Shown: one piece after another, positions 1-16,283 of the stretch
Position numbering within the stretch: the stretch's first letter is position 1
How the letters are laid out: each line of letters begins with the position of its first letter
From: Pseudomonadota bacterium
Lineage (GTDB): Bacteria; Myxococcota; JACRCW01; JAFGSX01
Direction: 5' to 3'
Assembly: GCA_043821645.1 (NCBI GenBank)
Contig: JBDRCO010000044.1
Coordinates: 6,910-70,909 of the forward strand
Length of the DNA stretch: 64,000 bases
Translations under genes and position numbers: made by a program
The notes under the pieces: model-generated
Told to the model about the DNA's origin: nothing
What the model saw: the letters and a program-made list of their open reading frames with translations, nothing else
Databases searched by the model: none

Positions 1-650
1 CGACCTCGGCAGTGGCCCTGTTGCTGGTCACCAGTCTCGCGACCGTGCTGGCGTGGCGCGCCTGGCGCTGGGATGCCACGGTACAGCAGACAGCCGCGAC
101 CGATGCCGCGCTCGCTGTCGTGGTGGGCAGCGGGGCCGACGCAAGCGTCGCGCGGGATGTGGACGGACGTCTGACGCAGGCGGAGAGCCAGGACGCTGCG
201 GTGGTCGCGGTGGCCGCCGCGTCTGCAGATGCGGCGCGCCACGAGCCAGGCCCCCGCTCCGGAGATGCGGGACCAGCTGGCCAGCACACCGCCGTCACCT
301 CAGCGCAGCCCACACCGACGCCCGTGGCGACCCGGGATCCCGTCGCAAAGGACCCTGTCGTCGAGACCCCGCGGCCCGCCAAGTTCGACAAGCGGCGCCT
401 GTTTGATCTGCTCACCAAGGGGGATATTCGCCACGAGGCCGGAGACTACGAGGGCGCGCTCGAGTTCTACCAGAAGGCTCTCAAGCTCGCCCACAACGAG
501 CCCCGGGTGCATCAGAAGCTGGCGCTGGCCTACCACAACCTGGGTCGCTTCGCCGAGTCCTGCACGGCCCTGGGCACCTTCTTGCGGCTGGAACCACACC
601 CTCCCGGCGAGGACTACTACCGGGCGCTGATCATGCGCAACTGCCAGTGA
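1..650 (+). CDS. 5'-truncated membrane-anchored TPR-containing protein (possibly the C-terminus of a Ser/Thr kinase)
   Basis: Frame is open from the window edge. TM-like LLLVTSLATVLAW, an Ala/Pro linker, then TPR-like GDYEGALEFYQKALKLAHNEPRVHQKLALAYHNLG. Confidence 0.55.
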   Translation, partial: TSAVALLLVTSLATVLAWRAWRWDATVQQTAATDAALAVVVGSGADASVARDVDGRLTQAESQDAAVVAVAAASADAARHEPGPRSGDAGPAGQHTAVTSAQPTPTPVATRDPVAKDPVVETPRPAKFDKRRLFDLLTKGDIRHEAGDYEGALEFYQKALKLAHNEPRVHQKLALAYHNLGRFAESCTALGTFLRLEPHPPGEDYYRALIMRNCQ

Positions 651-672: not shown

Positions 673-2109
673 GTGAAACGACCCCGGGTGCTGTGGGCGC
701 GCGCGCCCTGGCGGCAACGCACGCGACGTCTGATGAGGCCGGTGGTGCGCGCGGCGCTGCAACGCTCGGCGACGCTTCCTCCGTCCTACTGGGGCTTGCG
801 TGTCGTCGACGGCAGGCTGCACGCCGGTGCGGTGGATCTGGCCGGCCTGTGTCCGCAGCACGGCTCGCCCCTGCACGTGGTGCTGGGGTCGCGTCTGCGC
901 GACAAGGTGCAGTGCTGCCAGGCGGCATTGGCGGGCGCGTCCACGGAACTGTTCTTTTCATACAAGACCAACCCGGTGCCGGGCGTGCTGCGCGTGCTCC
1001 ACGCACTGGGCGTCGGAGCCGAGGTCATCAGCCCCTACGAGTTGTGGCTGGCACAGCAGCTCGGCGTGCCCGGGCAGCAGATCGTGTACGGCGGCCCGGG
1101 CAAGGATGCACCGTCGATCCGGCGCGCCCTCGAGCTGGACATCCGCATGATCAACGTCAACCACCGCGAGGAACTCGAGGTGATCGCCGCCCAGGCTGCG
1201 GCGCTGGGTCGGCGCGCGCGGATCGCGCTGCGGGTGGCACCGGCCGGGGGCTGGAGCTGGCAGTTCGGGCTGTCCATCGCCGGTGGCGAGGCGCTCGAGG
1301 GTTTTCGCGCCGCGCTGGCCTCCCCCCATCTCCAGGTGGTGGGCTTGCACGCGCACCGCGGCGAGCTGATGCGCAGCGTCGGGGAGCTCCGTTCGTTTGT
1401 GCAGCCCGTGCTGACCTTCTGCGATGAGCTGCGGCGTGAGCTGAAACTCGACCTCGAGCTGCTGGACCTGGGCGGGAGCCTGGCCGTGCCGTCGGTGGCG
1501 TCGTCGCCGGCCCTCGAACGTCGCCTCGAGCGTGCTTTCTTGCTGCCAACGCCGGCGCCCGACCCCGCCGCGACCTTGACCCTGCCTGCTTACGCGGCCG
1601 AAGTGTCGCGCCAGGTCGCCGCGCACTTCAATGCCCGGGGCCGACCCGTGCCGACGGTGATCCTCGAGCCCGGCCGCGCGCTCAGTGCCGATTGCCAGCT
1701 CTTGCTGTGCCAGGTGCGCACGCTCAAGGCCAGAGCGGAGCCTCCGACCTACGCCATCCTCGATGCCGGCATCCACGTCGCCGAACCCGTGGCGCATGCG
1801 CATCACACGCTGTTCGCGGCCACGCGCATGAGCGCGCCCGCCACCACCACCTGGCGCCTGGTAGGGCCCACCTGCACGCCCCACGACGTGCTGTACAGCG
1901 CCTGGCAAGGTCCCGAGCTGCAGGTCGGCGACGTGCTCGCCATCATGGACGCGGGCGCGTACCTGGTGCCCTTCTCGACCACCTTCTCGTTTCCACGACC
2001 AGGCGTGGTGCTGGTGGACGACGGTCGGGTCGTGCTGTTGCGCCGGGCCGAGACCTTTGAGGATCTGGTGGCGCGCGACGTCATGAACTCACTTGAAGGT
2101 GAAGGGTAG
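673..2109 (+). CDS. Diaminopimelate-decarboxylase-like PLP-dependent decarboxylase (fold III)
   Basis: FSYKTN (PLP Lys), HAHRG, LDLGGSL, ILEPGRAL, GPTCTPHD, DAGAY. AGGAG RBS before GTG 673. Confidence 0.85.
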   Translation: MKRPRVLWARAPWRQRTRRLMRPVVRAALQRSATLPPSYWGLRVVDGRLHAGAVDLAGLCPQHGSPLHVVLGSRLRDKVQCCQAALAGASTELFFSYKTNPVPGVLRVLHALGVGAEVISPYELWLAQQLGVPGQQIVYGGPGKDAPSIRRALELDIRMINVNHREELEVIAAQAAALGRRARIALRVAPAGGWSWQFGLSIAGGEALEGFRAALASPHLQVVGLHAHRGELMRSVGELRSFVQPVLTFCDELRRELKLDLELLDLGGSLAVPSVASSPALERRLERAFLLPTPAPDPAATLTLPAYAAEVSRQVAAHFNARGRPVPTVILEPGRALSADCQLLLCQVRTLKARAEPPTYAILDAGIHVAEPVAHAHHTLFAATRMSAPATTTWRLVGPTCTPHDVLYSAWQGPELQVGDVLAIMDAGAYLVPFSTTFSFPRPGVVLVDDGRVVLLRRAETFEDLVARDVMNSLEGEG

Positions 2110-3438
2110 ACGCTGCTTCAGGGCTTCGCCCTCGAACACGGTCACGGCTCCGGGCACGGCGCGCGCACGGGCCAGGGCGGCCATGGTGGCCTCGGTGGGC
2201 CGGCGCAGGGGAGGCTGGCCGCCGCCAAAACTGGGGGTGCTGGGTTCGTCGGGAACACCCACGGCCTGACGTCGCTTGGGGTTGTGGTCCGACGCGCTGA
2301 TCCCTGCTGCATCGTCACGCGGTCGCAGGGCGCGCCGCACCTCGCCCAGGCGCGTGCGCAAGGCAGGGGGTGAGGCCCTGCGGTAGATGCACAGGTTGTG
2401 GGTGTCAAAGGTGTCGGCGAGCCAGCGTTGCTTGTGGTAGCCGAAGTGACCGTGCAGGGCCAAAGTCTCGACGCCACTGTGCAAGAAATCCTCGGTCTCC
2501 AGCAGCGCCAGGATGTTGCCGGGGCTGAGTGCGCGGTAATAGTCGTCGTAGCAGTTCTCGAGCCCAAAGCAGTTGGGACCGAAGCAGCCGTTGAGCAGTG
2601 CGGCGGCCGGCACGCCGTCGTGCAGCAGCAACCACACGTGCAGGGACATGGGTTGACCGGGTTCGGCCAGGGCCTCGAACAGAGCCTGGCGCTGCGGGTG
2701 GCGAGCGATGCCGACCTTGGCCTCGACCTTCCAGGAGCGCGCCTCGACGTCGAGGTAGACGGCGAGCAGGTCGCGCAGCACGCGCGGGTCACAGCTGCTC
2801 AGCACCGAGATGGTACCCGACTCGAACAGACGGCGACCGCGACGGGCGATACCCTGGCTGACCGAGCGATCCATGGCCTTGAAGAAGCCGGGAAGATCGT
2901 CGTGGGCACGCCGCACCTCGTTCATCGGCATGCCCGCGAAGACCTTGACCCGGGTCCAGGGGCGGCGCCCCGCGTCGCGCGCTCGCCACAGGCCCGAGTG
3001 AGGCTCCAGGTTGATGAGCTGGATCATGGCGTGGCGGTGCATGTGTCGAGTCATGTGCCGCAGCAAGGCCCGCGCTGCCGCGTCCTCGTGCTCGGCCGCA
3101 GCCAGCACCCGCGGTCTGTCGATCTCGGTGGCGACCAGGAACTCGAGACGGGTGAAGGGCAGACCCAGAGCGCGCGCACGCACCTCCTTGAGTGGCAGGG
3201 CGGCCATGATGTCACCGCCGTTCTCGGCGCGGCAGACCAGGATGCGCGAGCGCACCTGGCCCGGCCGGTACAGCTCGTTGTGCTCGAGGTAGGCTGCCAT
3301 GTACTCAGGAGTCAGATAGGGATTGGGCCGCGGCGAACGATCGTTGAGCTCGCGCAGAAGGGTCCACTGGTCACGGCACGCGTGCAGTGAGCCAAGATCC
3401 TCGACAACGAAGACGGGGAGTTGCGGGAGAGTCGTCAT
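2089..3438 (-). CDS. GNAT-fold acetyltransferase-like protein (CelD/BcsL-like)
   Basis: WLLLHDGVPAAALL...CYDDYYRALSPGNILAL...YHKQRW pattern. Start moved to ATG 3438 (MTTLPQLP) to avoid overlapping the asnB upstream region. Confidence 0.65.
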   Translation of the reverse strand: MTTLPQLPVFVVEDLGSLHACRDQWTLLRELNDRSPRPNPYLTPEYMAAYLEHNELYRPGQVRSRILVCRAENGGDIMAALPLKEVRARALGLPFTRLEFLVATEIDRPRVLAAAEHEDAAARALLRHMTRHMHRHAMIQLINLEPHSGLWRARDAGRRPWTRVKVFAGMPMNEVRRAHDDLPGFFKAMDRSVSQGIARRGRRLFESGTISVLSSCDPRVLRDLLAVYLDVEARSWKVEAKVGIARHPQRQALFEALAEPGQPMSLHVWLLLHDGVPAAALLNGCFGPNCFGLENCYDDYYRALSPGNILALLETEDFLHSGVETLALHGHFGYHKQRWLADTFDTHNLCIYRRASPPALRTRLGEVRRALRPRDDAAGISASDHNPKRRQAVGVPDEPSTPSFGGGQPPLRRPTEATMAALARARAVPGAVTVFEGEALKQRLPFTFK

Positions 3439-3574
3439 GACAGCGTGCGACCTCGAGCGATGGGATCGATAGACAGGGTCAAGGCTGCGCGACCGTGCTC
3501 CCAACCTATATAACGCGCGACGGTGAACTTCACCGAACATCGCAATCATGTCATGGTCTCGACGGGGGCCCACT

Positions 3575-5515
3575 GTGTGTGGAATCGCAGGTATCCTCGA
3601 GAGTTCTGGCGCGGTGCCCGACAGGGATCTGCTGCAGCGGATGATAGCGCGCCTGCGACACCGGGGGCCAGACGAGCAGGGACTTCACGTCGAGAAGGGT
3701 GCGGGCCTGGCACACGCCCGTCTCAGCATCATCGACCTCGCCAGCGGCCAGCAACCCATGCGCAGTCCCGAAAGCGGCCTGGTGCTGGCGTTCAACGGCG
3801 AGATCTTCAACTACCTGGAGCTGCGCGACGAGCTGGTGGCGCTGGGCCACGGCTTTCGCACGCAGTCGGACACCGAGGTGGTGCTGCGCGCCTACGAGGC
3901 CTGGGGCGCGGACTGCGTGCAGCGCTTCAATGGCCAGTGGGCCATCGCGCTGTGGGACCCGGCCCGGCAGAGACTGTTCGCTTCGCGCGACCGGCTGGGC
4001 ATACGACCCTTTTTCTACACCCGGCTGCGCGACCAGCTGGTGTTTGGCTCCGAGATCAAGGCCCTGCTCGCGCACCCCGAGGTGCAGGCGCGGGTCGACC
4101 TGCAAGGCCTGGATCAGTACTTCACCTACTGGACCAGCGTGCCGCCGCGCACCTTCTTTGCCGACATCCTCGAGCTGCCACCGGGGCACAACCTCGAGTT
4201 CCACGCCGGCGCGCTGCGCACCTGGCGCTACTGGCAACTCGACTACCCCACGCCCGCTCCCGCCTTGGCCGTGGACGAGGCCGTGGAACAGCTGAGCGCG
4301 CTGCTGCGCGACAGCGTGCGCCTGCGCCTGCGCGCCGACGTGCCGGTGGGGGCTTACCTGAGTGGTGGCCTCGACTCGGCCCTGACCGTGGCCCTGATCC
4401 GCGAACTGACCGACGCGCCTCTCGAGACCTTCTCGGTGGGCTTCGACCATCCCGACTACGACGAGAGTTCTTTTCAGCAACTGGCCGTGGCGCAGTTCGG
4501 CACCCGCCATCACCACCTGCAGTGCGGTGGCGACGACATCGCCAGGGCCTTCTCGCAAGTGGTGTGGCAGGCCGAGCAGCCCCTCCTGCGCTCGGCTCCG
4601 GCGCCGCTGTTCCTGCTCTCCGGGCAGGTGCGCGAGAACAACTTCAAGGTCGTGGTCACCGGCGAGGGCGCCGACGAGCTGTTCGGAGGCTACGACCTGT
4701 TCAAGGAGGCCAAGCTGCGCCGCTTCTGGGCCAAGCAGCCGGACTCGCGTTGCCGGCCCCTGCTGCTCCGGCGGCTGTACCCGTACATGTCCACGTTGCA
4801 GGCGCAACCCGTCGAGGTCCTGCGCAGTGTGTTCCACGTCAAGCCCGAGGCCCTGGCCAGCCCCTACTTCTCCCACCTGCCGCGCTGGGAGCTGACCGCC
4901 CGGCTCAAGCAGTTCTATTCGCCCGCGGTCAAGGCGGCCCTGGCGGGTGGTGTCGAGCACTCAGCGCTGCCCGAGCTGCTGCCCGAGAACTTCGCGCGCT
5001 GGGATCCCTTCTGTCAGGCACAGCACCTCGAGACCGCGCTGCTGCTGCCCGGCTACCTGCTCTCCGCCCAGGGCGACCGCATGACCATGGGGCACTCGGT
5101 CGAGGGTCGCTTTCCCTTTCTCGATCACCGGGTGGCGGAGTTCGCCGCCGCGCTGCCGCCGCGCCTCAAGATGCGCGTTCTCGACGAGAAATACTTGCTC
5201 AAGCAGCTCGGCAAGGGTCGCATTCCGGCGCCCATCCTGGCTCGCCCCAAGCAACCCTACCGGGCTCCGGACCTGACGGCCTTCATCGGGCCCGCGGGTG
5301 CGCTTCACCCCTCGGTGGCCGACGCTCTCGAACCCCACGCCCTGGCCGCGGCCGGGCTCTTTCACCCGCCGGCGGTGGCGGCCCTGGTGCGCAAGTGCCA
5401 GGCTGGCCGAGCCATAGGCACGCGCGACGCCATGGCGCTGGTGGGGATCCTGTCGACCCAGCTTCTGATGAAGCAGTTCAAAATTCACGATATGAAAGGT
5501 CCCGCTCATGGATGA
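3575..5515 (+). CDS. asnB: Asparagine synthase (glutamine-hydrolysing) family amidotransferase
   Basis: GTG start gives N-terminal (M)CGIAG Ntn nucleophile. RHRGPDE, LAHARLSIID, FNGEIFNY, YLSGGLDS, TGEGADELFGGY, SVEGRFPFLDHRV. Confidence 0.95.
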   Translation: MCGIAGILESSGAVPDRDLLQRMIARLRHRGPDEQGLHVEKGAGLAHARLSIIDLASGQQPMRSPESGLVLAFNGEIFNYLELRDELVALGHGFRTQSDTEVVLRAYEAWGADCVQRFNGQWAIALWDPARQRLFASRDRLGIRPFFYTRLRDQLVFGSEIKALLAHPEVQARVDLQGLDQYFTYWTSVPPRTFFADILELPPGHNLEFHAGALRTWRYWQLDYPTPAPALAVDEAVEQLSALLRDSVRLRLRADVPVGAYLSGGLDSALTVALIRELTDAPLETFSVGFDHPDYDESSFQQLAVAQFGTRHHHLQCGGDDIARAFSQVVWQAEQPLLRSAPAPLFLLSGQVRENNFKVVVTGEGADELFGGYDLFKEAKLRRFWAKQPDSRCRPLLLRRLYPYMSTLQAQPVEVLRSVFHVKPEALASPYFSHLPRWELTARLKQFYSPAVKAALAGGVEHSALPELLPENFARWDPFCQAQHLETALLLPGYLLSAQGDRMTMGHSVEGRFPFLDHRVAEFAAALPPRLKMRVLDEKYLLKQLGKGRIPAPILARPKQPYRAPDLTAFIGPAGALHPSVADALEPHALAAAGLFHPPAVAALVRKCQAGRAIGTRDAMALVGILSTQLLMKQFKIHDMKGPAHG

Positions 5516-5792
5516 GTCCCAGATCGTGTCGCGGTTGCGCGACTTCATCGTCGAGAATTTTCTGTTCGGGGATGCCAGCCAGGCGCCCGCGGCCGAGGTC
5601 TCGTTCTTGGCCAGTGGTCTCATCGATTCCACGGGCATGCTCGAGCTGGTGTTCTTTATCGAGGAGACCTGGGCGCTGCACATTGCTGACGAGGACCTGA
5701 TCCCTGACAACCTGGATTCATGTCAACGCATTGCGCGCTTCGTCGCGCGCAAGCTCGACGCCGGCGCCACGGCCCAGGGGGGTGCGGTATGA
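5508..5792 (+). CDS. Acyl carrier protein
   Basis: 94-aa acidic protein with GLIDSTGMLELV phosphopantetheine-Ser motif. Overlaps the asnB stop. Confidence 0.9.
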   Translation: MDESQIVSRLRDFIVENFLFGDASQAPAAEVSFLASGLIDSTGMLELVFFIEETWALHIADEDLIPDNLDSCQRIARFVARKLDAGATAQGGAV

Positions 5793-6778
5793 GCAGCTTC
5801 GGACCAGGAGTCCTCGAGCTCGATACCCGCGCTGAGATCTCACGCATCGCCGGACGCCTGCGCGAGCAGGTGACCCGGCTGCTGCGGCGGCGCGGCGCGG
5901 TGGTCGCCCTGTCCGGCGGCATCGACAGCAGCGTCGTTGGCGCCCTGGCGGTCCGCGCCCTGGGGCCGGAGCACGTGCTGGGCCTGCTCTTGCCCGAGCG
6001 CGACTCGGCCGCAGAGACACCGGGCCTGGGGCAGACCCTGACCGAGCATCTGGGCATCGCATCCATCCAGGAGGACATCACCCCCCTGCTCGAGGCCACG
6101 GGCTGTTACCGTCGACGCGACGATGCGCTGCGCGAGGTGGTTCCCGCCTACGGGCCAGGCTGGAAGTTCAAGATCGTGTTGCCCCAGGTCGGTGAAGACG
6201 CGAGCTACAACTTCTTCTCGGCGGTGGTGCAGTCGCCCGACGGCGCGATGCAGAAGGTGCGGCTGCCCCCGCGCGCCTACCTCGGCATCGTCGCGGCCAC
6301 CAACTTCAAGCAGCGCGTGCGCAAGATGCTCGAGTACTACCACGCGGATCGTCTGCAGTACGCGGTGGCCGGCACGCCCAACCGGCTGGAGTATGATCAG
6401 GGCTTCTTCGTCAAGCTCGGCGACGGCGCCGCCGACGTCAAGCCCATCGCCCACCTGTACAAGACCCAGGTCTACGCCCTGGCCCGGGCCCTGGGACTGC
6501 CCGAGGAGATCTGCGCGCGCCCGCCCACCACCGACACCTACTCACTGAGCCAGGGACAGGACGAGTTCTACTTCTCGCTCCCCTACGCGCAGCTGGACCT
6601 GTGTTTGTATGCGCACAACCACGCCGTCGCCGCGGCCGACGTCGCGCCCCACGTGGGTCTGCGCGTGGATCAGGTCGAACGGGTCTACGCCGACATCACG
6701 AAAAAACGCGCCACCACCCGCTACCTGCACAGCGTTCCACAGCTCATCGAGGCGGTCCCAGAGATCTCCCGGGTGTGA
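5789..6778 (+). CDS. nadE: NH3-dependent NAD+ synthetase (NadE)-like ATP pyrophosphatase
   Basis: VVALSGGIDSSV PP-loop, NFKQRVR, AGTPNRLEYDQGFFVKLGDG, PIAHLYKTQVYALA. ATGA overlap with the ACP gene. Confidence 0.8.
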   Translation: MSSFGPGVLELDTRAEISRIAGRLREQVTRLLRRRGAVVALSGGIDSSVVGALAVRALGPEHVLGLLLPERDSAAETPGLGQTLTEHLGIASIQEDITPLLEATGCYRRRDDALREVVPAYGPGWKFKIVLPQVGEDASYNFFSAVVQSPDGAMQKVRLPPRAYLGIVAATNFKQRVRKMLEYYHADRLQYAVAGTPNRLEYDQGFFVKLGDGAADVKPIAHLYKTQVYALARALGLPEEICARPPTTDTYSLSQGQDEFYFSLPYAQLDLCLYAHNHAVAAADVAPHVGLRVDQVERVYADITKKRATTRYLHSVPQLIEAVPEISRV

Positions 6779-6800
6779 ACCAGGACGCGAGGGGTTCCCG

Positions 6801-8348
6801 ATGGCGGGTGAGCTGCTGCACCATCTGCTCGAGCACAGCGCAGGCCGCAGGCCCGAGGCTGAGGCCCTGGTGCAGGGTGACACGACGATCTGCTACGGCG
6901 AGCTGGAGAGAGGCGCCAACCGCCTGGCGCGCCTGCTCGTCGCGCGGGGCATCGCAGCCGGTGACCGCGTGGCCCTGCTGGCCCACAACGCGCGCTTTTA
7001 CGTCGAGGCCTACTACGGGGTTCTCAAGTCCGGAGCGGTGGTGGTACCCCTCAACACCGCAGCTCCGCCATCGCAGCTTGCCCAGCTACTGCGCCACGCC
7101 GAGGCCCGGGTCTTGCTCTGCGGGACCAGCATGCTGCGCCACGTGGTTCGCGAACCAGATGTGCTGGCACAGCTCGAGCTCCTCGTCACCGAGGGTGAGG
7201 TGCGGCTTCCCGCGCTCACCGCGACCCTGCAGGTCGCGAGCGCGGCACAGGCCGATCTCGACGCCAGCGCGCCCGCGATCGTCCGCGACGCGCAGGAGCT
7301 CGCGGCCATCGTCTACACCTCCGGCAGCACCGGCGCCCCGCTGGGAGCCTGCCTGAGTCACGCCAACCTGGTGCACAACGCCCGGGCCATTCTCGACTAC
7401 CTGCCCATGGCCTCCAGCGAGCGCGCTTTCGTGGTGCTGCCCTTCTATTACATCTACGGCACCTCCATCCTGAACAGCCACATCGCCGCGGGTGCCGCCC
7501 TGGTACTCGAGAACAACTTCATGTTTCCCCAGGCGGCCCTGGATCACCTCGAGGCAGAAGCGTGCACCAGCTTCGCCGGGGTGCCCTCGACCTTCGCCAT
7601 CCTGCTGCATCGCTCCAACCTGGCGCAGCGGCAGCTCGAACACCTGCGCTACGTCACCCAGGCCGGCGGCGCCATGAGCCCCGCCCTCACCCGCGAATTG
7701 ATGGCGGCGCTGCGGGGGCGAGCGCTCTACGTCATGTACGGAGCCACCGAGGCGGCGGGGCGGCTCACCTACCTGCCTCCACAAGAACTGCAGCGCGAGC
7801 TCGGTTCCATAGGCCGTCCCATCGCGGGCATGCAGGTGCACGTGCTGGGCACGAACGGCGAAGAGCTGGCGCCCGGCGAGGTGGGTGAACTGGTGGCCAG
7901 CGGTCCGAGCATCATGCAGGGTTACTGGAAGGCTGCGGACGAGACGGCGCGCGTGCTCGATGCCCACGGGCTGCACACGGGCGACCTGGGCTATCGCAGT
8001 CACAGCGGCATGCTGTACGTGGTCGGTCGCAGCAAGGACATGATTAAAAGTGGTGCGCACCGCATTGCCGCGCGCGAGATAGAAGAAGCCATCCTCGAGC
8101 ATGAGGCTGTGCACGAGGTGGCGGTGCTGGGCGTTCCCGACGCGATCCTGGGCGAGGCCATTCACGCCTACGTGGTACCGCGGGAGGCCGGGTTCGAGGT
8201 CGACACCTTGCGCGCCTTCTTGAGCACGCGTCTTGCCAGCTACAAGATCCCCGGGACCCTCGTGTGCCGGGAGACGCTGCCCAAGAACGACGCCGGCAAG
8301 ATCCTCAAGCTGCGGCTCCGTGAGGAGCTGGGACTGCCCACGGTCTAG
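6801..8348 (+). CDS. Class I adenylate-forming enzyme (acyl-CoA/acyl-ACP ligase)
   Basis: IVYTSGSTG, MYGATEA, LHTGDLG, GRSKDMIKSG, LPKNDAGKI. Confidence 0.92.
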   Translation: MAGELLHHLLEHSAGRRPEAEALVQGDTTICYGELERGANRLARLLVARGIAAGDRVALLAHNARFYVEAYYGVLKSGAVVVPLNTAAPPSQLAQLLRHAEARVLLCGTSMLRHVVREPDVLAQLELLVTEGEVRLPALTATLQVASAAQADLDASAPAIVRDAQELAAIVYTSGSTGAPLGACLSHANLVHNARAILDYLPMASSERAFVVLPFYYIYGTSILNSHIAAGAALVLENNFMFPQAALDHLEAEACTSFAGVPSTFAILLHRSNLAQRQLEHLRYVTQAGGAMSPALTRELMAALRGRALYVMYGATEAAGRLTYLPPQELQRELGSIGRPIAGMQVHVLGTNGEELAPGEVGELVASGPSIMQGYWKAADETARVLDAHGLHTGDLGYRSHSGMLYVVGRSKDMIKSGAHRIAAREIEEAILEHEAVHEVAVLGVPDAILGEAIHAYVVPREAGFEVDTLRAFLSTRLASYKIPGTLVCRETLPKNDAGKILKLRLREELGLPTV

Positions 8349-8923
8349 GCGTCTTCTCTCGCCACCAGATCCAGTCGCATGCATCGTGCCGGGTTGCCGA
8401 TGGCCAGGCTGTGGGGGGGGACATCGCGCGTGACCACGGCCCGCGCCGAGACCACCGCGCCATCGCCGATGCGCACGCCGGGTTGCACCACGGCGCCGTG
8501 GGCCAGCCAGACGTCGTCGCCGATGTGCACGGGTCCGCGCAGGCGTCGGGTGCGGTCGCGAATGACGACCCCGGTGGCGAGGATGCAGCCGTTCCCCAGC
8601 GTCACCTCGTCGTGGGCGTCGATGGTGACACCGTAGTTGAAGCCACAGCGATCACCGATGCGCAGGGTCGCACCGGGGTGGCTGCGCAGTTCCGTCGCCA
8701 CCGGGCCGCCGAGAAAGAAGCAGCTGCGACCAAGGCGCACCCTGCCGGACTCCGGCGCGAGCAGCACGGTGCCCCGGGTCCAGACCCGCGCCCCGAGCTC
8801 GGCGTGGCGGAGCTGCCAGCGGGCGCGCAGCATGCAGCTCGCGCGCTCGGCCAGGGTGGCGAGGCGGAGCGCCGCGGCATGCAGGTGCTGACGGTGCGGC
8901 ACGGCGCCCGAGGACTCAGCCAT
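8345..8923 (-). CDS. Hexapeptide-repeat (LbH) acyltransferase
   Basis: VHIGDDVWLAHGAVVQPGVRIGDGAVVSARAVVTRDVPPHSLAIGNPAR. Confidence 0.88.
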   Translation of the reverse strand: MAESSGAVPHRQHLHAAALRLATLAERASCMLRARWQLRHAELGARVWTRGTVLLAPESGRVRLGRSCFFLGGPVATELRSHPGATLRIGDRCGFNYGVTIDAHDEVTLGNGCILATGVVIRDRTRRLRGPVHIGDDVWLAHGAVVQPGVRIGDGAVVSARAVVTRDVPPHSLAIGNPARCMRLDLVAREDA

Positions 8924-9446
8924 GGCGCTCGCTCTCCTTCGGGATCGGGCGCGCGGCCACACGACGGCTCACCACCCGTCCGGGCTCGATGCTGCAGCCA
9001 TCCTCGACGATGGCGCCCGGCAGCAGCACGACGTGGGGACCGAGCTCGACGTCGGCACCCACCTGCAGCTTGCCGGCCTCGGGCCGGACCGCGCGATTGC
9101 CCCGGATCGCGTGGAACTGGTTGTCCATGAGCTTGCAAAATCGTCCCAGGTGGCAGCGTGGGCCGATGCGGATCACGCCGGTGGCCTCGATGGACACGCC
9201 GGGCTCGATGGACACGTCGTCACCGATGTAAATCTCGGCGCCGGGTCGGGCATGCAACTCGATGGCGCAGGCCCTGCCGTCCAGGTGGACGCGGTCCCCC
9301 AGCACGATACGGCCACCTCCCCGCACCCAGATCCGGCCCCGGGTCACCGGAGCGCTGCCGAGGTGGGCGCAGCGGCGTAGTCTGAAACGAGCGAGGAGCT
9401 CGGTCCCCGGTCCCCGCAGCGGATCGAGAAGTCGTGACCAGGCCAT
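8916..9446 (-). CDS. Hexapeptide-repeat (LbH) acyltransferase
   Basis: IYIGDDVSIEPGVSIEATGVIRIGPRCHLG...VGADVELGPHVVLLPGAIVEDG. Confidence 0.8.
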   Translation of the reverse strand: MAWSRLLDPLRGPGTELLARFRLRRCAHLGSAPVTRGRIWVRGGGRIVLGDRVHLDGRACAIELHARPGAEIYIGDDVSIEPGVSIEATGVIRIGPRCHLGRFCKLMDNQFHAIRGNRAVRPEAGKLQVGADVELGPHVVLLPGAIVEDGCSIEPGRVVSRRVAARPIPKESERHG

Positions 9447-9447
9447 C

Positions 9448-10305
9448 TCAAGGATCCTGCGCGGGCGCGCTCCCGGCTGCCGCCAGCGAGCCCAGAAAGC
9501 GCAGCAGCTCGGCGGCCAGGACGCGACGACCTGCCTCGTTCGGATGTTCCCCGTCGTCGGTGTAGACAGGGGCCAGGACCTCGACGGGGCGGCCCTCGAC
9601 CTCGATGAGATGCCGCTGACCGCCGGCGGTGGTCGACTCCAGCCGCGCCAGATCGAACACGGGCTGTCCCGTCAACTCCTGGCGCACGCGCGCGTTGTAG
9701 GCTGCGCGCTTCAGGTTCTCGCGCTCACCCCACACCGGCTTGCCCAGAGCTCGCTTGAGCGTCGCCTTGACCCCGCCCTGCACCGTGGTCAGCGGCACGG
9801 TCAAGTGCACGAAGGTGGTCGAGGGGTAGCGCGCCCGCAGGCCGTCCAGGGTGCTGCGGTAGCGCTCGAAGAGAGCATCCACGTCGGTCTGCGCGTTGAA
9901 ATCGATGTAACAGAATTTCATGAAGGCCAGGTTGGCGATGCCGCCGAGCCCACCCTCGATCGCACGCTTGAAGTCCTCGAGCTTGCTCTGGGCGTTCTCG
10001 TTGCGGCCGATGGCCGAGTGCAGGATCACGCCAGGTCCGAGCAGCGAGGCCTCGCGTCCGTCGACGATGCGAAGGGCGTGCGGAGCCCGGCCCCCCTCGA
10101 GGTCCTCGATACCCGAGAGCAGGTCGCGCCCCACCGACTGGTGGCCAAAGAAGATGCGTTGCCCCGCGAGCATGCCCAGAACCTCCTCGTCACGATCGGC
10201 GGGTGCCGGCAGGATCCCGGGATCCACGTCGCCACAGGCGAGCACGATCCCTGCCAGGGACATCACCACGGCCATCCGGGTGCCGGTCTGGCGTGGTGTG
10301 CTCAA
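9448..10305 (-). CDS. Putative lipoprotein, SGNH-hydrolase-like
   Basis: Lipobox-like IVLAC, FFGHQSVG near the N-terminus and DDGEHPNEAG (DxxH) near the C-terminus. Start uncertain (TTG 10305 with GGAGG, or ATG 10275). Confidence 0.5.
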   Translation of the reverse strand: MSTPRQTGTRMAVVMSLAGIVLACGDVDPGILPAPADRDEEVLGMLAGQRIFFGHQSVGRDLLSGIEDLEGGRAPHALRIVDGREASLLGPGVILHSAIGRNENAQSKLEDFKRAIEGGLGGIANLAFMKFCYIDFNAQTDVDALFERYRSTLDGLRARYPSTTFVHLTVPLTTVQGGVKATLKRALGKPVWGERENLKRAAYNARVRQELTGQPVFDLARLESTTAGGQRHLIEVEGRPVEVLAPVYTDDGEHPNEAGRRVLAAELLRFLGSLAAAGSAPAQDP

Positions 10306-10397
10306 GCGCGAGCCCTCCCCGAGCACCACCTCCAGGGGGCGTCCACAAGTTCTAGGACCGTGAGGGTCTCGAGTCGTGCGCACGACATCCTGCCGTC

Positions 10398-11687
10398 TCA
10401 GTCCAGCGAGGTGCGAATCAAGGTGAACTCGCTCATCGACGAGGGCAGCTGGTCACTGTCGAGGTCCGTCCACTCGACCACGAACCAGCTGGCCTGGGGA
10501 TCGGGTGCGGCCAGAAGGTGGTTCACCAGGTACCAGCCCGCAGCCCGGCTGCCCACGATGTCGAAGCCGTAGCTGGCCAGGATCAAGGCGCCGCGCTCGG
10601 GATCCGGGAACAGCTCGACGACAAAGTAGTCGTGGCTCGCGGTGGTCAAGCTGGCGGGCACTTCGATGACGACGCCGGAGCCGTCGGTCCGCACGAAGCT
10701 GTGACGGTTCTGGCCATTGTCAAAGACGTAGCGAAGAGGTGCCGCGTCGCTGTCCTCGAAATGCTGGAGCATGAGCTGAAAGTAGGGCCCGCCGTGCAAG
10801 ATGATCGTGTTCCCCACGCCGACGAGCGGCGCGTGGGTGGTCTGATCGACGACGCTGGCATCGAGAAGTGTGGTGTGGGTGACCGTGCCCGTGCAGTGCG
10901 CGGCAATGGCAGCGCCGTTGAGGGCCAGGGTGATGTCATCGTCCACGCCGGAACCCACGGAGATGCGAGTGTCGTTGTCGCACAGCGTGGAGAAGCCCAG
11001 GGGGGTGCAGCCTGGCGTGTCGGCGCAGAACTGCGTGGATCCACAGCTCGCACCGCAGGCACCACAGTGGTTTGGATCTGCGAGCAGGTCCACGCAGTGA
11101 CCGCTGCAGCAGACCTGGGGATCTCCGCAGGACGGACCACTGTCTTCGCCGCTGCACTCGGGGCCCGCGTCGATCGCAGCATCCACGGCGGGTGCGGTAT
11201 CGATGCCGCCTCCGTCCGCGGCGGCGTCACCCGCGGGGCCGCCGCTATCCGCCATGGTGGCACCGTCCGGTGCGGGCGCGTCTGGCAATGCGGTGTCACC
11301 TGACGTGACGTCGGCCTGGAGTACATCGGTGGCGTTGCTGTCCGGGGTGCTGGTGTCGGCCACATGGGTATCGGCCGTGCTGGTGTCGACGGTTGCGCTA
11401 TCCGCCACACGGGCATCGGTCGTGGCGGTGTCGACGGCTGCGCTATCCGCCACTCGGGTGTCTGCGACGCTGCTGTCCCCGCGCGCAGCGTCCTGCTCCG
11501 AGCTGTCTGCCCCGGCCACATCTGCCGCCGTGCCCTGGTCTGCCGTGGAGCGATCCGCACCCGCGCTGTCGGCAGTTCGGGCATCCGTCCCCCCGCCACT
11601 GTCGGCGGTCGTCGCGGGATCCGGACAGGCGAGTAGACAGCAGAGCACACCCAGCGCCGGCACCGTCTTGAAGCCGTTTCCTCGCAT
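10398..11687 (-). CDS. Cys-rich lipoprotein with D/A/S/T linker and unknown C-terminal domain
   Basis: LLACP lipobox, low-complexity linker, CVDLLADPNHCGACGASC repeat of the myxobacterial Cys-rich type. Confidence 0.6.
   Translation of the reverse strand: MRGNGFKTVPALGVLCCLLACPDPATTADSGGGTDARTADSAGADRSTADQGTAADVAGADSSEQDAARGDSSVADTRVADSAAVDTATTDARVADSATVDTSTADTHVADTSTPDSNATDVLQADVTSGDTALPDAPAPDGATMADSGGPAGDAAADGGGIDTAPAVDAAIDAGPECSGEDSGPSCGDPQVCCSGHCVDLLADPNHCGACGASCGSTQFCADTPGCTPLGFSTLCDNDTRISVGSGVDDDITLALNGAAIAAHCTGTVTHTTLLDASVVDQTTHAPLVGVGNTIILHGGPYFQLMLQHFEDSDAAPLRYVFDNGQNRHSFVRTDGSGVVIEVPASLTTASHDYFVVELFPDPERGALILASYGFDIVGSRAAGWYLVNHLLAAPDPQASWFVVEWTDLDSDQLPSSMSEFTLIRTSLD
11366..11459. 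repeat. Imperfect 45-bp tandem repeat (about 2 copies) in the linker-coding region
   Basis: gggtatcggccgtgctggtgtcgacggttgcgctatccgccacac followed by gggcatcggtcgtggcggtgtcgacggctgcgctatccgccactc. Confidence 0.8.
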
Positions 11688-11826
11688 CCCCACCTCCTGT
11701 GCGCCCAGGTTGCGCGTCCTGCACATCCTCTCACATTCCATCCCCAAATGTGTTGTAGTGTGCCCGTTTCATCTGCGCCAGTGCGCGACGCCTCGTCGCT
11801 CGATATGTATGGCCTCCCGAGGACGC

Positions 11827-12522
11827 ATGACCGAGCACGATGACCAGAACATGCAGTCAACCAGCGAAGAGCCGGATCGCGCGACACGGCTGCAGGCCTG
11901 GCGTCGTGGTTCGACGGGCCCTCTTCCGGTGGCCGTGCCGGTGCCCGTCCAGCACGCCTGGTACCGCATGACCGGCGGCGAGTGGACCTCGCTGGCCCTG
12001 GTTCCCGTCGACAGCCACGTGCGTGCGGCAGGGCTGGCGCGCAACTTCGGACAGCTCGCCGCGCAGGAGCCGCAGGCCAGGATCCTCGTCGTCAACGCCT
12101 CGCTCCGGGGCTGCTGGACGCCGACCGATCCGCGCCCGGCTCCACCCGAGGAGATCTGGTCGTTTCTGGCAGCGGCCTCGACCACCAGCGCCGAGAGTTC
12201 GTCGCTTCCTTTTGACTACCTGGACTTCGTCAATCTCGACCGGGTCGAGGCCACCCGGGCCCTGGCCTCGGCGCAGACCCTGCTCGACGCGGTCATGCTC
12301 AAGGCGGCCTACCGGCGCTGCATCTTCGCCGTCGACGACGTGATGACCCAGCCCGAGGCCACGCCCCTGGTCCGCGCGGTGGACATGGCCGTGCTGTGCG
12401 TGGCTCGCGGCAGGAGCACGCTGCGGGCCGTGCGCCATGCTCTCGACCTGTTCGGACCATCCAAGATCGCCGGTGCGGTGCTGCTGGAGCCGTCGACCTC
12501 CGCGAGCGCGGCTCGGGACTAG
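11827..12522 (+). CDS. Stand-alone BY-kinase-like (CpsD/CapB fold) protein lacking Walker A; probable pseudokinase
   Basis: ILVVNA and AVDMAVLCVARGRSTLRAVRHALDLFGPSKIAGAVL resemble the CpsD C-terminus. No GxGKS/T seen (ALVPVDSHVRAAGLA occupies that position). Confidence 0.6.
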   Translation: MTEHDDQNMQSTSEEPDRATRLQAWRRGSTGPLPVAVPVPVQHAWYRMTGGEWTSLALVPVDSHVRAAGLARNFGQLAAQEPQARILVVNASLRGCWTPTDPRPAPPEEIWSFLAAASTTSAESSSLPFDYLDFVNLDRVEATRALASAQTLLDAVMLKAAYRRCIFAVDDVMTQPEATPLVRAVDMAVLCVARGRSTLRAVRHALDLFGPSKIAGAVLLEPSTSASAARD

Positions 12523-12695: not shown

Positions 12696-13478
12696 CTAGA
12701 GGCTCCCCCCCGTCGTCGACGAGCAAGGCGCTGCGCGGCGTACGCAGCATGCGCCAGGCAATGCCCAGGATCGCGCGATCGCGCACCAGGTAGCGCTGTG
12801 CCATGCGCCGCGGGTCCTGCCACAGGCGGTAGCTCCACTCGAGCCCGAGGCTCGACATCCAGGCCGGCGCGCGTCGCTGCTCGCCCGCCAAGAAGTCCAG
12901 GGTCCCGCCCACGCCCAGGGCCACGGCCGGTGCCGTGCCGCACGCCAGCGGTGCATGAGCAGCTCCTGCAGCGGACAGCCCAGGGCCACCAGCACCAGGT
13001 CGGGCCGGCTTGCGCGCACGCGCTCGAGAGCCTCGGCGCTGGCCACGGGGTCGCACTCGAAGCCGCGCGGGGGCGCGTCCAGGCCGACGATCTGCAGCGT
13101 CGGCAGCATGGCCTGCACGACCTCCGCAGCGCGCGCGCCTACGCCAGGAGCCGCCCCGAGGAAGAACACCCGCCAGCCCTCGCGCGCCGCACGTTCGAGC
13201 AGCGGCAGGGCCAGGTCCGAGCCCGACACCTTCTCGGGAAAGCGTGCGCCGACGAGACGGCTCAGCCACACCAGGGGCATGCCGTCGACCAGGGACAGGG
13301 ACGCATCGTCGTAGGCCGCGCGCAACTCGGCGTCGGATTCGGCCAGCACCACATGGTCCACGTTGGGCGTGACCACGTAGCCGCCCTGGCCGCGCTGGAT
13401 GAGCTCGGCGATGGCGGTGATGGCGCCCTCGAAGGTCACCATGTCGGCGTGGATGCGGCCGAGGCAGAGACGCTGCAT
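12625..13478 (-). pseudogene. WecB/TagA/CpsF family glycosyltransferase (EpsA-like), frameshifted
   Basis: N-part has VVTPNVDH, DGMPLVW, KVSGSDL, VALGCPLQE. The conserved C-part GVGGTLDFLAGEQRRAPAWM..LGLEWSYRL lies in another frame. A single missing base at 12934/12935 would restore ...AALAPAVALG. Could be a sequencing error. Confidence 0.8.
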
Positions 13479-13484
13479 GACGCC

Positions 13485-15152
13485 CTAGCGAGCCACCGGC
13501 GCCACTGCGCTGGAGCTGTCGTGCGTTGCCGTGTCGTCGTCCCTGCCGCCGCCGCGACCCCCGGCGGCCCGCGCGCGGACCTCGGGGCGAGGTGCGGTGA
13601 CGACGGAGTTCGCAGGCACCGACTCGGTCAGCACCACCCCGGCCATGATCTTGGAACCGGCGCCGACGGTGATCGGACCGAGCAGGGTGGCGCCCGGGCC
13701 GACGTGGACACCGGGCTCCAGCGTCGGTGCGCCCTGGACGCGCGTCACCGGGTCCAGGCCCTCGCCCAGGGTCACGTTGTGAAACAAGATGCAGCCCTCG
13801 CCGACCCGCGCGGCGTGGCTGATCACCAGCCCGTTGCCGTGCACCACCGAGATCCCGGGCGCGATGTCCGCGTCCCAGTGGATCTCGGCGCCATACAGGT
13901 GCCGGATCAAGCGCGAGGTCACCTGCGGCAGCAGGGGTAAACGACGTCGACGCAGCGCTTGCATCAGCCGCACTGCCGCCAGCATCTGCACGCCCACCTT
14001 GGTCACCACGTGAACCGGCAGCTGGCCCGGGCTCACGCGGTCGGCGTGGTACTTCGACCGGTTGCGGCGCAGCGAGGCGTGGTCCGCACGCAGCGCACCG
14101 AGAAACGACGGTGGAGCCGCGGCGCGGCGCTTGTCGAGATAGTGACGCAGGCCGTGCACGGCGCCTCCCAGCGAGCCCGAGGCCTCGCGCAGACCGTGAA
14201 AGTACTCGACGCCGTAGGCCAGGGTGGTGCCAGCCAGGGCAGGACGCTGCAGGCCCAGGCGATCCAGTCGCCCGGCCACGACCATGAGTCCTCGTGCCAG
14301 GGGCTTTGCGGCGACGGGCAGGGCGACCACGCCGAGCAGCAAGGGCCGCGAGACATGGTTGACCAAAAACAGGTAGCGCCAGGGATCCGCACTTTCCACA
14401 TCTTGATGCATGGCGGCGATGCGCGCGTCCCACAGGCCGTACTCGAAGGCGCGGCTGAGCCAGCGCTCGAGCACGGTGTGATCGGTGTGGTGCACGACCT
14501 CGGCGTCGATGGCGAAGGCGAGACGGGCGCCCGCCTTCTCGAGGCGTATGCCCAGCTCGCGATCCTCCGAGCGCGGGATGCTGGCGTCAAAGCCCCCCAC
14601 CTCGAGGTAGCGCCGACGGCGGATCGACACGTTACCCGAGCACAGCTGGATGCCCTTCAAGCGGATCCGGCCGCTTCGGATCTGGCGCGCCAGGCGCAGC
14701 ACCTGCTCGGCGTGAAAGCGTTCGAACAGCGGCATCGTGCCGAACTCGGGCGCGGGCGCGATCAGGCCGAACACCACCTCGGCGCCGGCCTGGTGAGCGC
14801 GCAGGTGCGCGGATAAAAAGCCTGGCCCGAGCTCCATGTCGTCGTCGACGACCACCAAGATCTCACCCTGGGCCACCTGTGCTCCGCGGTGCCGTGCGGC
14901 AGCGGGGCCGGCATTGGCCTGGGCGAGGTACGTGATCGGGTAGGGCAGCTCCAGCGCCCGGCAAGCCTCGCTCGCCGGGGGTGTCGAGCCGTCATCCACC
15001 ACCACCACCTCGAACTGATCCGCGGCCAGATCCTGCTGTCCCAGATCCCGCAGCAAGCGCTGCAAGGCAGCATGGCGATTGTAGGTCGCCACCACGACGC
15101 TGATCTGGAGGGGAGTGTGCTCCGCCACGCGCTCAATCCTCCCGGCGCGCAT
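13485..15152 (-). CDS. GT2 glycosyltransferase fused to a C-terminal serine-O-acetyltransferase-like LbH domain
   Basis: ISVVVATYNR, VVVVDDGS, LVVVDDD, EDRELGIRL, then in the same frame LYGAEIHWDADIAPG..HGNGLVI..NVTLG..HVGPGATLLGPITVGAG. Confidence 0.85.
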   Translation of the reverse strand: MRAGRIERVAEHTPLQISVVVATYNRHAALQRLLRDLGQQDLAADQFEVVVVDDGSTPPASEACRALELPYPITYLAQANAGPAAARHRGAQVAQGEILVVVDDDMELGPGFLSAHLRAHQAGAEVVFGLIAPAPEFGTMPLFERFHAEQVLRLARQIRSGRIRLKGIQLCSGNVSIRRRRYLEVGGFDASIPRSEDRELGIRLEKAGARLAFAIDAEVVHHTDHTVLERWLSRAFEYGLWDARIAAMHQDVESADPWRYLFLVNHVSRPLLLGVVALPVAAKPLARGLMVVAGRLDRLGLQRPALAGTTLAYGVEYFHGLREASGSLGGAVHGLRHYLDKRRAAAPPSFLGALRADHASLRRNRSKYHADRVSPGQLPVHVVTKVGVQMLAAVRLMQALRRRRLPLLPQVTSRLIRHLYGAEIHWDADIAPGISVVHGNGLVISHAARVGEGCILFHNVTLGEGLDPVTRVQGAPTLEPGVHVGPGATLLGPITVGAGSKIMAGVVLTESVPANSVVTAPRPEVRARAAGGRGGGRDDDTATHDSSSAVAPVAR

Positions 15153-15789: not shown

Positions 15790-15899
15790 CGTCTTCTCGC
15801 CCCTCCCTGCGTGTGTCGCGGGGGCCTCGACCCCGTGCCCCCGGGCGGACGAGGCCTCGTTTCGCATTTTCGAATGACGGACGCAACCGGCCAGCCAAG

Positions 15900-16283
15900 A
15901 CACGTAGCAGAGAGGGCACCGCTCCGCAGGGTGGTGGATCCAAGCACCGGCAGGATCCATGTAGGATAATCTGCTCCAAACCCAAGGCCACGCCGCTATA
16001 TTTTGGTAGGCATGTGGAGTAACTGGATGGGATCGAGCCACAATAAACCGCCGGATAGAATTTTTAAACTACTTAGTATTTTTGGTGTTTTTTTAAACTC
16101 TGCGGGTGAGAAGGCTTGCTTCTTGAGCCGCCAACCCTATGTGTGGGTTGTGCACCCACAGCCGACAGCCCTTTTGGAGCATGTGGACCATTCTGGTTAT
16201 GACGCTATGCGTCATATGTTCTGGACATTGGACGGTGGAGGTGAGACTGCTACCTGGTGTGGACCTCTTGGGGGAGGGGAATC
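15900..16283. promoter_or_regulatory. AT-rich divergent regulatory region of the eps locus
   Basis: T/A tracts (aatttttaaac, gttttttaaac) in otherwise high-GC DNA, between divergent operons. RBS GGAGGGG before ATG 16284. Confidence 0.55.

Follow-up and report, generated by a model that had tools for sequence, protein, structure and literature searches.

We analysed a 64,000-nucleotide stretch of a Myxococcota genome (contig JBDRCO010000044.1 of GenBank assembly GCA_043821645.1; hereafter the window), in which a cassette of four genes, encoding an AsnB-type glutamine amidotransferase, an acyl carrier protein (ACP), a NadE-like PP-loop enzyme and an acyl-AMP ligase, lies within an Eps-type exopolysaccharide (EPS) locus. 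Because the window is about 69% G+C, genes were chosen by third-position GC content (GC3). The calls were then checked against Pfam and NCBIfam, and gene junctions and starts were read from the DNA. Every gene named in the original prediction, an earlier reading of this sequence, proved real under this procedure. The cassette and its immediate neighbours are as follows.

673–2109 (+): fold-type III pyridoxal phosphate (PLP) decarboxylase, Orn/DAP/Arg fold (PF02784, PF00278)
2089–3438 (−): FemAB/CelD-type GNAT (PF13480, E=8.5e-12)
3575–5515 (+): AsnB-type glutamine amidotransferase, core gene 1, long form, 646 aa (PF00733, GATase_6, GATase_7)
5508–5792 (+): ACP, core gene 2, 94 aa (NCBIfam ACP models)
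5789–6778 (+): NadE-like PP-loop ATP pyrophosphatase, core gene 3, 329 aa (NF002048 subfamily)
6801–8348 (+): ANL-superfamily acyl-AMP/acyl-carrier ligase, core gene 4, 515 aa (PF00501, PF13193)
8345–8962 (−): LbH (hexapeptide) acyltransferase 1, LbH1 (Hexapep, E=4.6e-13)
8916–9446 (−): LbH acyltransferase 2, LbH2, 176 aa (Hexapep, E=2e-10)
9448–10383 (−): SGNH-fold lipoprotein (VLAC lipobox, AlphaFold/Foldseek)

The four core genes occupy 4.8 kb of a single strand (3575–8348), with junctions that overlap or are 22 nt long. The asnB and ACP genes overlap by 8 nt, the ACP ATG at 5508 lying within the asnB stop region. The ACP TGA and the NadE-like ATG form a shared ATGA (5789–5792), and the ligase ATG follows 22 nt past the NadE-like stop. 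Reading the DNA thus confirms the predicted overlap of asnB, ACP and NadE-like genes, with the ligase close behind. The SGNH, LbH2 and LbH1 genes form a minus-strand operon that converges on the ligase, and the 3′ end of LbH1 overlaps that of the ligase by 4 nt. A promoter and terminator scan gave nothing informative.

The AsnB protein starts at a GTG (3575) and its next codon is Cys, giving the N-terminus M-C-G-I-A-G. It has the intact N-terminal Cys nucleophile (Cys2) that an N-terminal nucleophile (Ntn) glutaminase requires, together with an SGGLDS PP-loop, and both the MCGIAG and SGGLDS motifs are conserved over 44 AsnB sequences. The protein passes the asparagine synthase model TIGR01536 (513 bits, cut-off 267), and does not reach the level of housekeeping AsnB set by the asnB equivalog PRK09431 (303 bits, cut-off 499). 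Its best solved relative is the hydroxyamidotransferase TsnB9 (PDB 7ylz, 258 bits, versus 157 bits for E. coli AsnB). By sequence, the window AsnB is therefore nearer to this secondary-metabolism amidotransferase than to the housekeeping enzyme. TsnB9 has the same long-form AsnB architecture, but enzymes of the TsnB9/OxyD type serve polyketide biosynthesis and have no NadE-like partner. OxyD makes the malonamyl starter unit of oxytetracycline, a precedent for amidating the carboxylate of a thioester-bound acyl group.

The Pfam PP-binding model misses the ACP (best Pfam match PF14573, E=0.09), which NCBIfam ACP models do detect (best 43.8 bits, E=2.5e-11). It bears an IDSTG phosphopantetheine-serine motif that is at least 90% conserved in the family. 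A link to the ornithine-lipid OlsHI system was considered and dropped: the ACP likeness is weak (43.8 bits, cut-off 130) and the pathway is unrelated.

The NadE-like protein exceeds the cut-offs of NF002048 (502.5 bits, cut-off 313) and of the nadE domain model TIGR00552 (146 bits, cut-off 63.65). Its AlphaFold model (pLDDT 86.8) has a NadE fold, with Foldseek TMt values of 0.84–0.86 to NadE structures, and it keeps an SGGIDSS PP-loop and the central NadE motifs, including GFFxKxGDG. The fold, the SGGxDS PP-loop and GFFxKxGDG are common to the window protein, NadE and the Francisella nicotinamide mononucleotide (NMN) synthetase variant (PDB 2e18, 1xng, 3fiu). The Francisella enzyme, which is among the top fold matches of the model, is a precedent for an altered substrate in the NadE fold. 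The window protein differs from solved NadE enzymes in its sequence (just 20–28% identity), in a modelled insert of about 60–70 residues (about 102–171) that adds a helix and a small sheet, in its linkage to ACP, ligase and AsnB genes, and in the occurrence of some fusions. The position that we take to be the stacking Tyr32 (B. subtilis numbering) is Val in this protein.

An exact sequence look-up of the window NadE-like protein returned no record. A HMMER search of 1.84 billion representative proteins for this family gave 402 clusters (50% identity) at E≤1e-30. Among these, NadE-like domains occur in natural fusions with a complete ANL ligase (849 aa), with an AcpS-type phosphopantetheinyl transferase (PPTase; 479 aa), and, in the 510-aa metagenomic representative P0255, with an AMP-binding_C (A_sub) domain and a PP-binding domain carrying a GGHSL carrier motif. 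In P0255 the NadE-like domain occupies the position of the ANL core domain, and the A10 catalytic Lys of A_sub is replaced (..SPDGNID..). These fusions tie the NadE-like family to carrier-protein chemistry rather than to NAD synthesis. Two apparent NadE-like–AsnB fusions (P0276 and P0370) were set aside; they resemble partial or merged gene calls, and we did not rely on them because an internal Cys could not act as the Ntn nucleophile.

The nearest solved relatives of the ligase are fatty-acyl, feruloyl, malonyl and oxalyl-CoA synthetases (187–227 bits). None of these is close enough to point to a particular acid substrate. The window ligase keeps the A10 Lys. Its A3 motif reads YTSGSTGAPLG, where the closest relatives have RPRG and most of the family xPKG; only the window copy lacks the conserved basic residue of this phosphate-binding loop.

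NadE-like homologues number more than 8000 in the protein collection, and the best non-self match is 68–69% identical. Matches are spread across Planctomycetota, Myxococcota, Actinomycetota and other phyla, and a scan of one genome per species found the protein in at least 587 species. As a comparison set we used 80 NadE-like loci from more than 15 phyla, many of them incomplete, which were searched by tblastn with all window proteins. These loci encode the ACP (65), the ligase (64) and AsnB (59), and the complete core set occurs in 47 of the 61 loci that are at least 12 kb long. The PLP decarboxylase was seen in one of the 80 loci and the GNAT in none, so neither belongs to the cassette in which the original prediction had placed them.

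Gene order and span were taken from the 43 loci in which each core gene occurs just once. Here the core genes span a median of 4965 bp (less than 7 kb in 40 loci), lie on a single strand in 35 and occur in about 20 different orders, ACP–ligase being the commonest adjacency (28 loci). The NadE-like protein is the best conserved of the four, at a mean pairwise identity of 59%, followed by AsnB (48%), the ACP (41%) and the ligase (38%). The clustering of the core genes is far beyond chance and recurs in dozens of unrelated genomes. That the linkage survives about 20 rearrangements favours a single pathway. The conserved unit consists of AsnB, ACP, NadE-like protein and ligase only, with the LbH and SGNH proteins as recurrent accessories.

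Judged by sequence, the window cassette is of the same family as the pSymB operon asnB-SMb20651-SMb20650-nadE1 of Sinorhizobium meliloti (Ramos-Vega et al. 2009, Microbiology 155:257; summarised in PMC7232532). The annotated S. meliloti region holds asnB, acyl carrier protein, acyl-CoA ligase and nadE genes as one operon, and the window proteins are identical to its products over their full length at 53% (AsnB), 45% (ACP), 36% (ligase) and 61% (NadE-like). More widely, the NadE-like protein matches 116 plasmid records, mainly Sinorhizobium/Ensifer megaplasmids. The ligase SMb20650 is cotranscribed with the ACP SMb20651, SMb20651 is converted to its holo form with AcpS, and co-expressing SMb20650 leads to acylation of the ACP (PMC7232532). 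A 2017 paper listed the function of the S. meliloti ACP as still needing investigation (PMC5686131).

In S. meliloti and in the window, the same four families are tightly packed on one strand. The two differ in core order (AsnB-ACP-ligase-NadE in S. meliloti, AsnB-ACP-NadE-ligase in the window) and in setting: around the S. meliloti operon are ABC-transporter, aldo/keto-reductase and minCDE genes, whereas the window cassette lies within an Eps-type Wzx/Wzy locus with LbH and SGNH genes. The window cassette is thus a member, in a new Eps-type context, of a documented but uncharacterised family, rather than a new kind of system. Apart from the S. meliloti studies, a literature search for this combination of genes found no publications.

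To define neighbouring gene families, we clustered the open reading frames (ORFs) that surround the 80 loci and then searched iteratively with HMMs. Genes for AcpS-type PPTases occur in 9 loci and for a small methyltransferase in 8. Polysaccharide hallmarks are more frequent, comprising phosphoglycosyltransferases (PGT, 16), family 2 glycosyltransferases (GT2, 20), polysaccharide co-polymerases (PCP, 13), BY-kinases (13), GT4 enzymes (11), Wza (8), Ugd (7), WecG (7) and DegT (6). Full 10-kb flanks were available for 34 loci; of these, 22 (65%) carry one or more such hallmarks within 9 kb, and 16 (47%) carry two or more. Genes for Wzx, Wzy, WecA-type proteins or exosortases lie within about 700 bp downstream of the cassette in 8 loci. 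The hallmark HMMs missed such genes, so 65% is a lower bound. The predicted linkage between cassette and polysaccharide genes therefore held across homologous loci, most cassettes with full flanks being linked and a minority, including that of S. meliloti, standing alone.

The closest relatives are Myxococcota loci from metagenome-assembled genomes (MAGs; L002, L012 and L031), of which L002 and L012 have the same gene order as the window. The L002 cassette lies beside GH44, EpsU and Wzy-like genes and that of L012 beside EpsA/EpsD-like genes; L031 has a different core order beside EpsU/EpsA-like genes. L002, the nearest syntenic Myxococcota locus, also encodes a CE4 polysaccharide deacetylase just upstream of asnB (2921–3967); an amino sugar might thus be deacetylated first and then reacylated.

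A family of about 370 aa without a Pfam match recurs in seven loci (L062, L063, L065, L066, L069, L073 and L043), mainly in those with the S. meliloti gene order. We rejected its designation as 'GNAT-like': besides lacking a Pfam match, it is not homologous to the window GNAT (hhalign probability 0.8%). Against PDB profiles it gave only non-significant matches, to N-myristoyltransferase.

LbH genes were found in 26 of the 80 loci and adjoin a core gene on the same strand in 14. LbH1 has weak NCBIfam matches to O-acetyltransferases and LpxA/LpxD, and is a candidate transferase for the ACP-bound group. Further LbH domains form the C-terminus of an EpsD/EpsC-like fusion protein (13485–15326) and lie at 15133–16041. 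The two LbH acyltransferases flanking the cassette and the additional LbH domains across the locus are thus present as predicted.

The SGNH family is found in 15 loci, directly adjoining core genes in 11. Sequence evidence for the fold is weak (E about 0.002–0.006, below the Pfam gathering threshold). The AlphaFold model (pLDDT 86.5) matches only SGNH hydrolases and acyltransferases in Foldseek, including SsfX3, OafB, Ape1 and TesA. Ser47, Asp241 and His244, a catalytic set of Ser plus Asp-x-x-His, are invariant in an alignment of 14 sequences, and the family motif is FGHQSVG...KFCYID...DGxHxN. The lipobox, model, fold matches and invariant triad together bear out the SGNH-like lipoprotein of the original prediction, and the modelled protein is probably an extracytoplasmic esterase or acyltransferase.

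Our preferred reading, to which we give a probability of about 0.45, is that 3575–8348 is a self-contained four-gene module that makes an amide-bearing acyl group for an Eps-type repeat unit. The ligase would adenylate a carboxylic acid and load it as a thioester onto the holo-ACP, as shown for the S. meliloti pair. AsnB would then amidate a free carboxylate of the carrier-bound group with glutamine-derived ammonia, and the NadE-like enzyme might activate another carboxyl or carbonyl group by adenylation, so that it can be amidated or transferred to the thiol of the carrier. By analogy with LpxA and LpxD, an adjacent LbH enzyme could pass the amide-bearing acyl group to a sugar of the undecaprenyl-linked repeat unit, and the SGNH lipoprotein may finally trim or relocate an ester or amide in the periplasm. 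Experimental backing, from S. meliloti, exists for the loading step alone. The ACP-centred amidation and acylation of the original prediction thus survives in the four-gene ACP cassette within an Eps-type locus, and loses its decarboxylase, which lies outside the cassette.

Carrier-dependent decoration of envelope polymers is known from D-alanylation by DltABCD, from tetronate transfer by RfbKLMNO in V. cholerae O1 and from the deacetylation and N-acylation carried out by LpxC and LpxD. LbH enzymes perform the transfer in the Lpx and RfbO cases, and DltD is an SGNH-like extracytoplasmic protein. A private carrier loaded by an ANL ligase, with LbH or SGNH involvement, is common to these systems and to the proposal made here. 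Unlike them, the window cassette has no MBOAT (DltB) partner beside it, adds two PP-loop amidating enzymes and shows no orthology at the sequence level. We considered and rejected a Dlt-like route from an MBOAT or AT3 protein to the SGNH protein: the multi-transmembrane genes adjacent to cassettes encode Wzx, Wzy, WecA-type proteins or exosortases.

Several observations weigh against a polysaccharide-directed acyl module. No member of the family has an assigned substrate or product, and the operon structure in the window is itself predicted from sequence alone. The window ligase might be impaired, because its APLG variant lacks the basic residue of A3. Most catalytic NadE motifs are retained in the NadE-like protein, which also scores above the NAD-synthase domain cut-off and could thus have NAD synthetase activity. 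The SGNH protein is extracytoplasmic and cannot reach a cytoplasmic ACP, and no MBOAT- or AT3-type shuttle was found in the cassette region of the window or adjoining cassettes elsewhere. About one third of the full-flank loci (12/34) have no glycan gene by the HMMs used, and the operon lies outside a polysaccharide locus in S. meliloti and other Alphaproteobacteria. SMb20651 reportedly carried C12 and C18 fatty acids in E. coli (an observation said to have been made by Ramos-Vega in 2009), which would fit a lipid product. These last points, together with the ABC-transporter, aldo/keto-reductase and minCDE surroundings of the S. meliloti operon and the fatty-acyl-CoA synthetases among the nearest ligase relatives, would be explained if the cassette made a lipid or small amide, such as a fatty amide or N-acyl compound, that is not attached to polysaccharide; proximity to EPS genes would then reflect a shared envelope role or a lipid anchor. 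We consider this unlikely, while giving it appreciable weight, since glycan genes occur in most loci and are often directly adjacent, the cassette lies inside an Eps-type locus in the window and its closest relatives, and no lipid-synthesis genes recur near it. Moreover, SMb20650 is unable to replace FadD, for which it cannot stand in on oleate (PMC7232532).

The cassette could also serve two separate decorations, with AsnB and the NadE-like protein amidating uronic-acid carboxylates in nucleotide sugars or polymer, where NDP-uronates would mimic nicotinic acid adenine dinucleotide (NaAD), and with the ligase, ACP and LbH enzymes acylating independently. AsnB homologues of the WbpS/WbtH type in O-antigen loci are linked to uronamide formation, UDP-glucose dehydrogenase (Ugd) is encoded in 7 loci and directly adjoins the core in 3, and the window encodes a WecG/TagA-type (ManNAcA-type) transferase. 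Yet independent functions would not hold four genes together through about 20 rearrangements and more than 15 phyla, the NadE-like domain is fused to ligase, carrier domain and PPTase, and Ugd is absent from most loci and from the window as far as scanned; we judge such a division of labour improbable. A different role for one component, loading of the carrier by the NadE-like protein itself, would have ANL and PP-loop loaders build a two-part acyl group on one ACP, the latter by PP-loop thioesterification. The NadE-like domain in place of the ANL core in P0255, with the A10 Lys replaced, points in this direction, as does the rank of the NadE-like protein as the most conserved component (59% mean identity). 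But a single architecture is the basis for this proposal, we know of no biochemical precedent for thiol attack in the NadE family, and the stand-alone cassette always retains an ANL ligase, which together make it quite improbable. The names that NCBIfam assigns above cut-off, asparagine synthase (TIGR01536) and NAD(+) synthase (NF002048, TIGR00552), would suit housekeeping copies of asnB, nadE and lysA whose proximity to an EPS locus is accidental. This explanation carries next to no weight given the ACP and ligase linkage conserved across phyla, the presence of the operon on pSymB in S. meliloti with its gene named nadE1, the sub-cut-off scores for lysA (227/298) and asnB PRK09431 (303/499), and a NadE-like protein that has 20–28% identity to solved NadE and fusions to carrier-protein components.

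Extended to the family, the preferred reading of an amide-bearing acyl module leads to a wider and more tentative proposal. The 'NAD(+) synthase' of about 330 aa defined by NF002048 would be a carrier-directed PP-loop enzyme and not an NAD synthetase; with AsnB, a private ACP and an ANL ligase it may form a widespread, undescribed pathway that supplies bacterial surface polysaccharides with an amide-bearing acyl substituent. The boldest version, which the NadE-like–A_sub–carrier fusion suggests, would have the NadE-like protein replace the ANL core and load the carrier thiol. Thousands of database genes named 'NAD(+) synthase' or 'asparagine synthase' are probably part of one dedicated carrier-protein pathway. 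Identification of the product would correct this annotation and explain an S. meliloti operon that has been left open since 2009. The product could be a new decoration of exopolysaccharides, capsules or O-antigens in bacteria of soil, sediment and wastewater.

The remaining annotated features of the window are as follows, with scores given as bits/cut-off.

3–650 (+): tetratricopeptide-repeat (TPR) protein, 5′ end cut by the window (Pfam TPR families)
12696–25838: Eps-type Wzx/Wzy genes (NCBIfam best matches, Pfam)
12696–13478: EpsA-like (NCBIfam EpsA 161/500)
13485–15326: EpsD/EpsC-like fusion (EpsD 355/370, EpsC 105/150)
15133–16041: LbH3 (Pfam)
16245–17675: EpsZ-like PGT (EpsZ 506/800)
17656–19263: Wzx (Wzx_EPS 295/800)
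21131–23128: EpsV-like PCP (EpsV 207/800)
22840–24633: Wzy (Wzy_EPS 280/670)
24267–25838: EpsU-like GT2 (EpsU 419/700)
25857–27110 (−): ATP-grasp-like enzyme, 417 aa (small-family profile against PDB)
27322–31051 (+): glycoside hydrolases of families GH44 and GH5, closing the EPS locus immediately past the ATP-grasp gene

The best NCBIfam matches of the polysaccharide genes are M. xanthus Eps models, and 'myxobacterial-type EPS locus' is therefore a fair label. All eight matches are below their equivalog cut-offs, so the locus is a distant Eps-type relative and not the same pathway as in M. xanthus. The Eps-type stretch also holds a putative outer-membrane protein. In the published description of the M. 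xanthus eps locus, neither the text nor Table S1 has an asparagine-synthase, acyl-carrier, NAD-synthase or decarboxylase entry (PMC7484181), in agreement with the earlier claim that the M. xanthus pathway has no such cassette. The GH44 family found at the end of the window locus also accompanies two related loci (L002 and L085).

Between a Cys-rich lipoprotein gene and the EpsA-like gene lies the 3′ part of a long GC3-supported frame (11809–12522, +). Its product of about 237 aa has no Pfam match and by eye resembles a BY-kinase-type protein without a P-loop. It may be an EcpK-like pseudokinase partner of the EpsV-like PCP, a pairing of pseudokinase and PCP that has been described for M. xanthus (PMC12004946).

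The PLP decarboxylase does not reach the LysA level (226.8 bits in two stretches against TIGR01048, cut-off 297.9). Its orthologues in cultured Myxococcus, Corallococcus and Pyxidicoccus (50–55% identity) adjoin an ATP-grasp-like gene and a small GT2 gene. In Myxococcus faecalis (L082/L083, 9153–12822), the small GT2 gene is followed by the decarboxylase gene, which is convergent with a gene for a 438-aa ATP-grasp-like protein. The window ATP-grasp-like protein is 29% identical to the latter over 412 aa (E=2e-36), and is also homologous to the product of the gene two upstream of the decarboxylase in a metagenomic Eps-type locus (L085, 7918–11422). That locus encodes the ATP-grasp-like protein, GT2 and decarboxylase, in that order, in the absence of an AsnB cassette; it also holds two AT3 acyltransferases, an alpha/beta hydrolase and the GH44. 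The ATP-grasp-like protein has no Pfam match, and a single-sequence search of the PDB was empty. A profile of four sequences of its family matched solely ATP-grasp enzymes in the PDB, the match being weak (carbamoyl-phosphate synthetase, E=5.7e-6).

The GNAT gene is convergent with the decarboxylase gene and divergent from asnB. The same convergent pair occurs in the closest MAG (L084), where the GNAT is 76% identical. A search of 5.8 billion proteins found one close relative of the GNAT, on a 1.5-kb contig, and a sequence search of the PDB found no match; the GNAT is lineage-specific.

From the pairing in Myxococcus and L085 and the arrangement in L084, the decarboxylase and ATP-grasp genes form a second, independent module, to which the FemAB-type GNAT may belong. 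The ATP-grasp gene of the original prediction is thus present at 25857–27110, as a partner of the decarboxylase and not of the core cassette. By analogy, the probable role of the second module is to produce an amine by decarboxylation and join it to a carboxylate such as that of a uronic acid. In the glucuronamide pathway of the C. jejuni capsule, Cj1438 combines a GT2 and an ATP-grasp amidoligase (PMC11800379). Both the C. jejuni pathway and the Myxococcus/L085 trio combine a GT2 with an ATP-grasp amide ligase, putative in the trio, and a PLP-dependent source of amine within a polysaccharide locus. The two differ in that Cj1438 is fused whereas the myxobacterial proteins are separate, and a LysA-like decarboxylase is not the enzyme type used in C. 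jejuni. Eps-type loci of uncultured myxobacterial lineages thus hold at least two modification modules, the cassette and the decarboxylase/ATP-grasp pair, that the M. xanthus model lacks. Myxobacterial EPS is therefore likely to be chemically more varied than this model implies.

The original prediction also likened these genes to the sets that accompany exosortase-A (XrtA/PEP-CTERM) loci, which comprise a TIGR03098 ligase, a TIGR03099 PLP decarboxylase, a TIGR03108 amidotransferase and a FemAB-like protein. The same enzyme classes do lie beside EPS genes in the window. The curated cut-offs are not reached (TIGR03098 346/592, TIGR03099 113/478, TIGR03108 467/817), and because all three scores are far below them the comparison is one of analogy and not of membership. 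The window GNAT does not match the PEP-CTERM FemAB model, no exosortase (EpsH) was seen among the window ORFs scanned, and, to our knowledge, the described XrtA set includes neither a NadE-like protein nor an ACP.

Exosortase genes do lie directly downstream of the NadE-like gene in two other loci (L034, 11016–12566; L013, 2492–4483). In L013 an open frame of 664 aa joins an NTP-transferase/LbH (GlmU-like) part to the exosortase domain, either as a real fusion or as an ORF-calling artefact. In a Deltaproteobacteria MAG (L068, 11915–14895), genes for an LbH protein, another ANL ligase and a PLP decarboxylase come directly after the cassette, the last two forming a ligase–decarboxylase pairing typical of exosortase-A loci.

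The TPR protein at the start of the window scores 20.8 bits against the PrsT model (cut-off 312). It flanks the locus. Two genes for secreted or lipoprotein-like products (10398–11747, −; 31100–32452, −) bracket the EPS locus; each product has a long low-complexity stretch rich in Asp, Ala, Thr and Ser, followed by a Cys-rich domain with weak matches to Stig1 and DUF7107.

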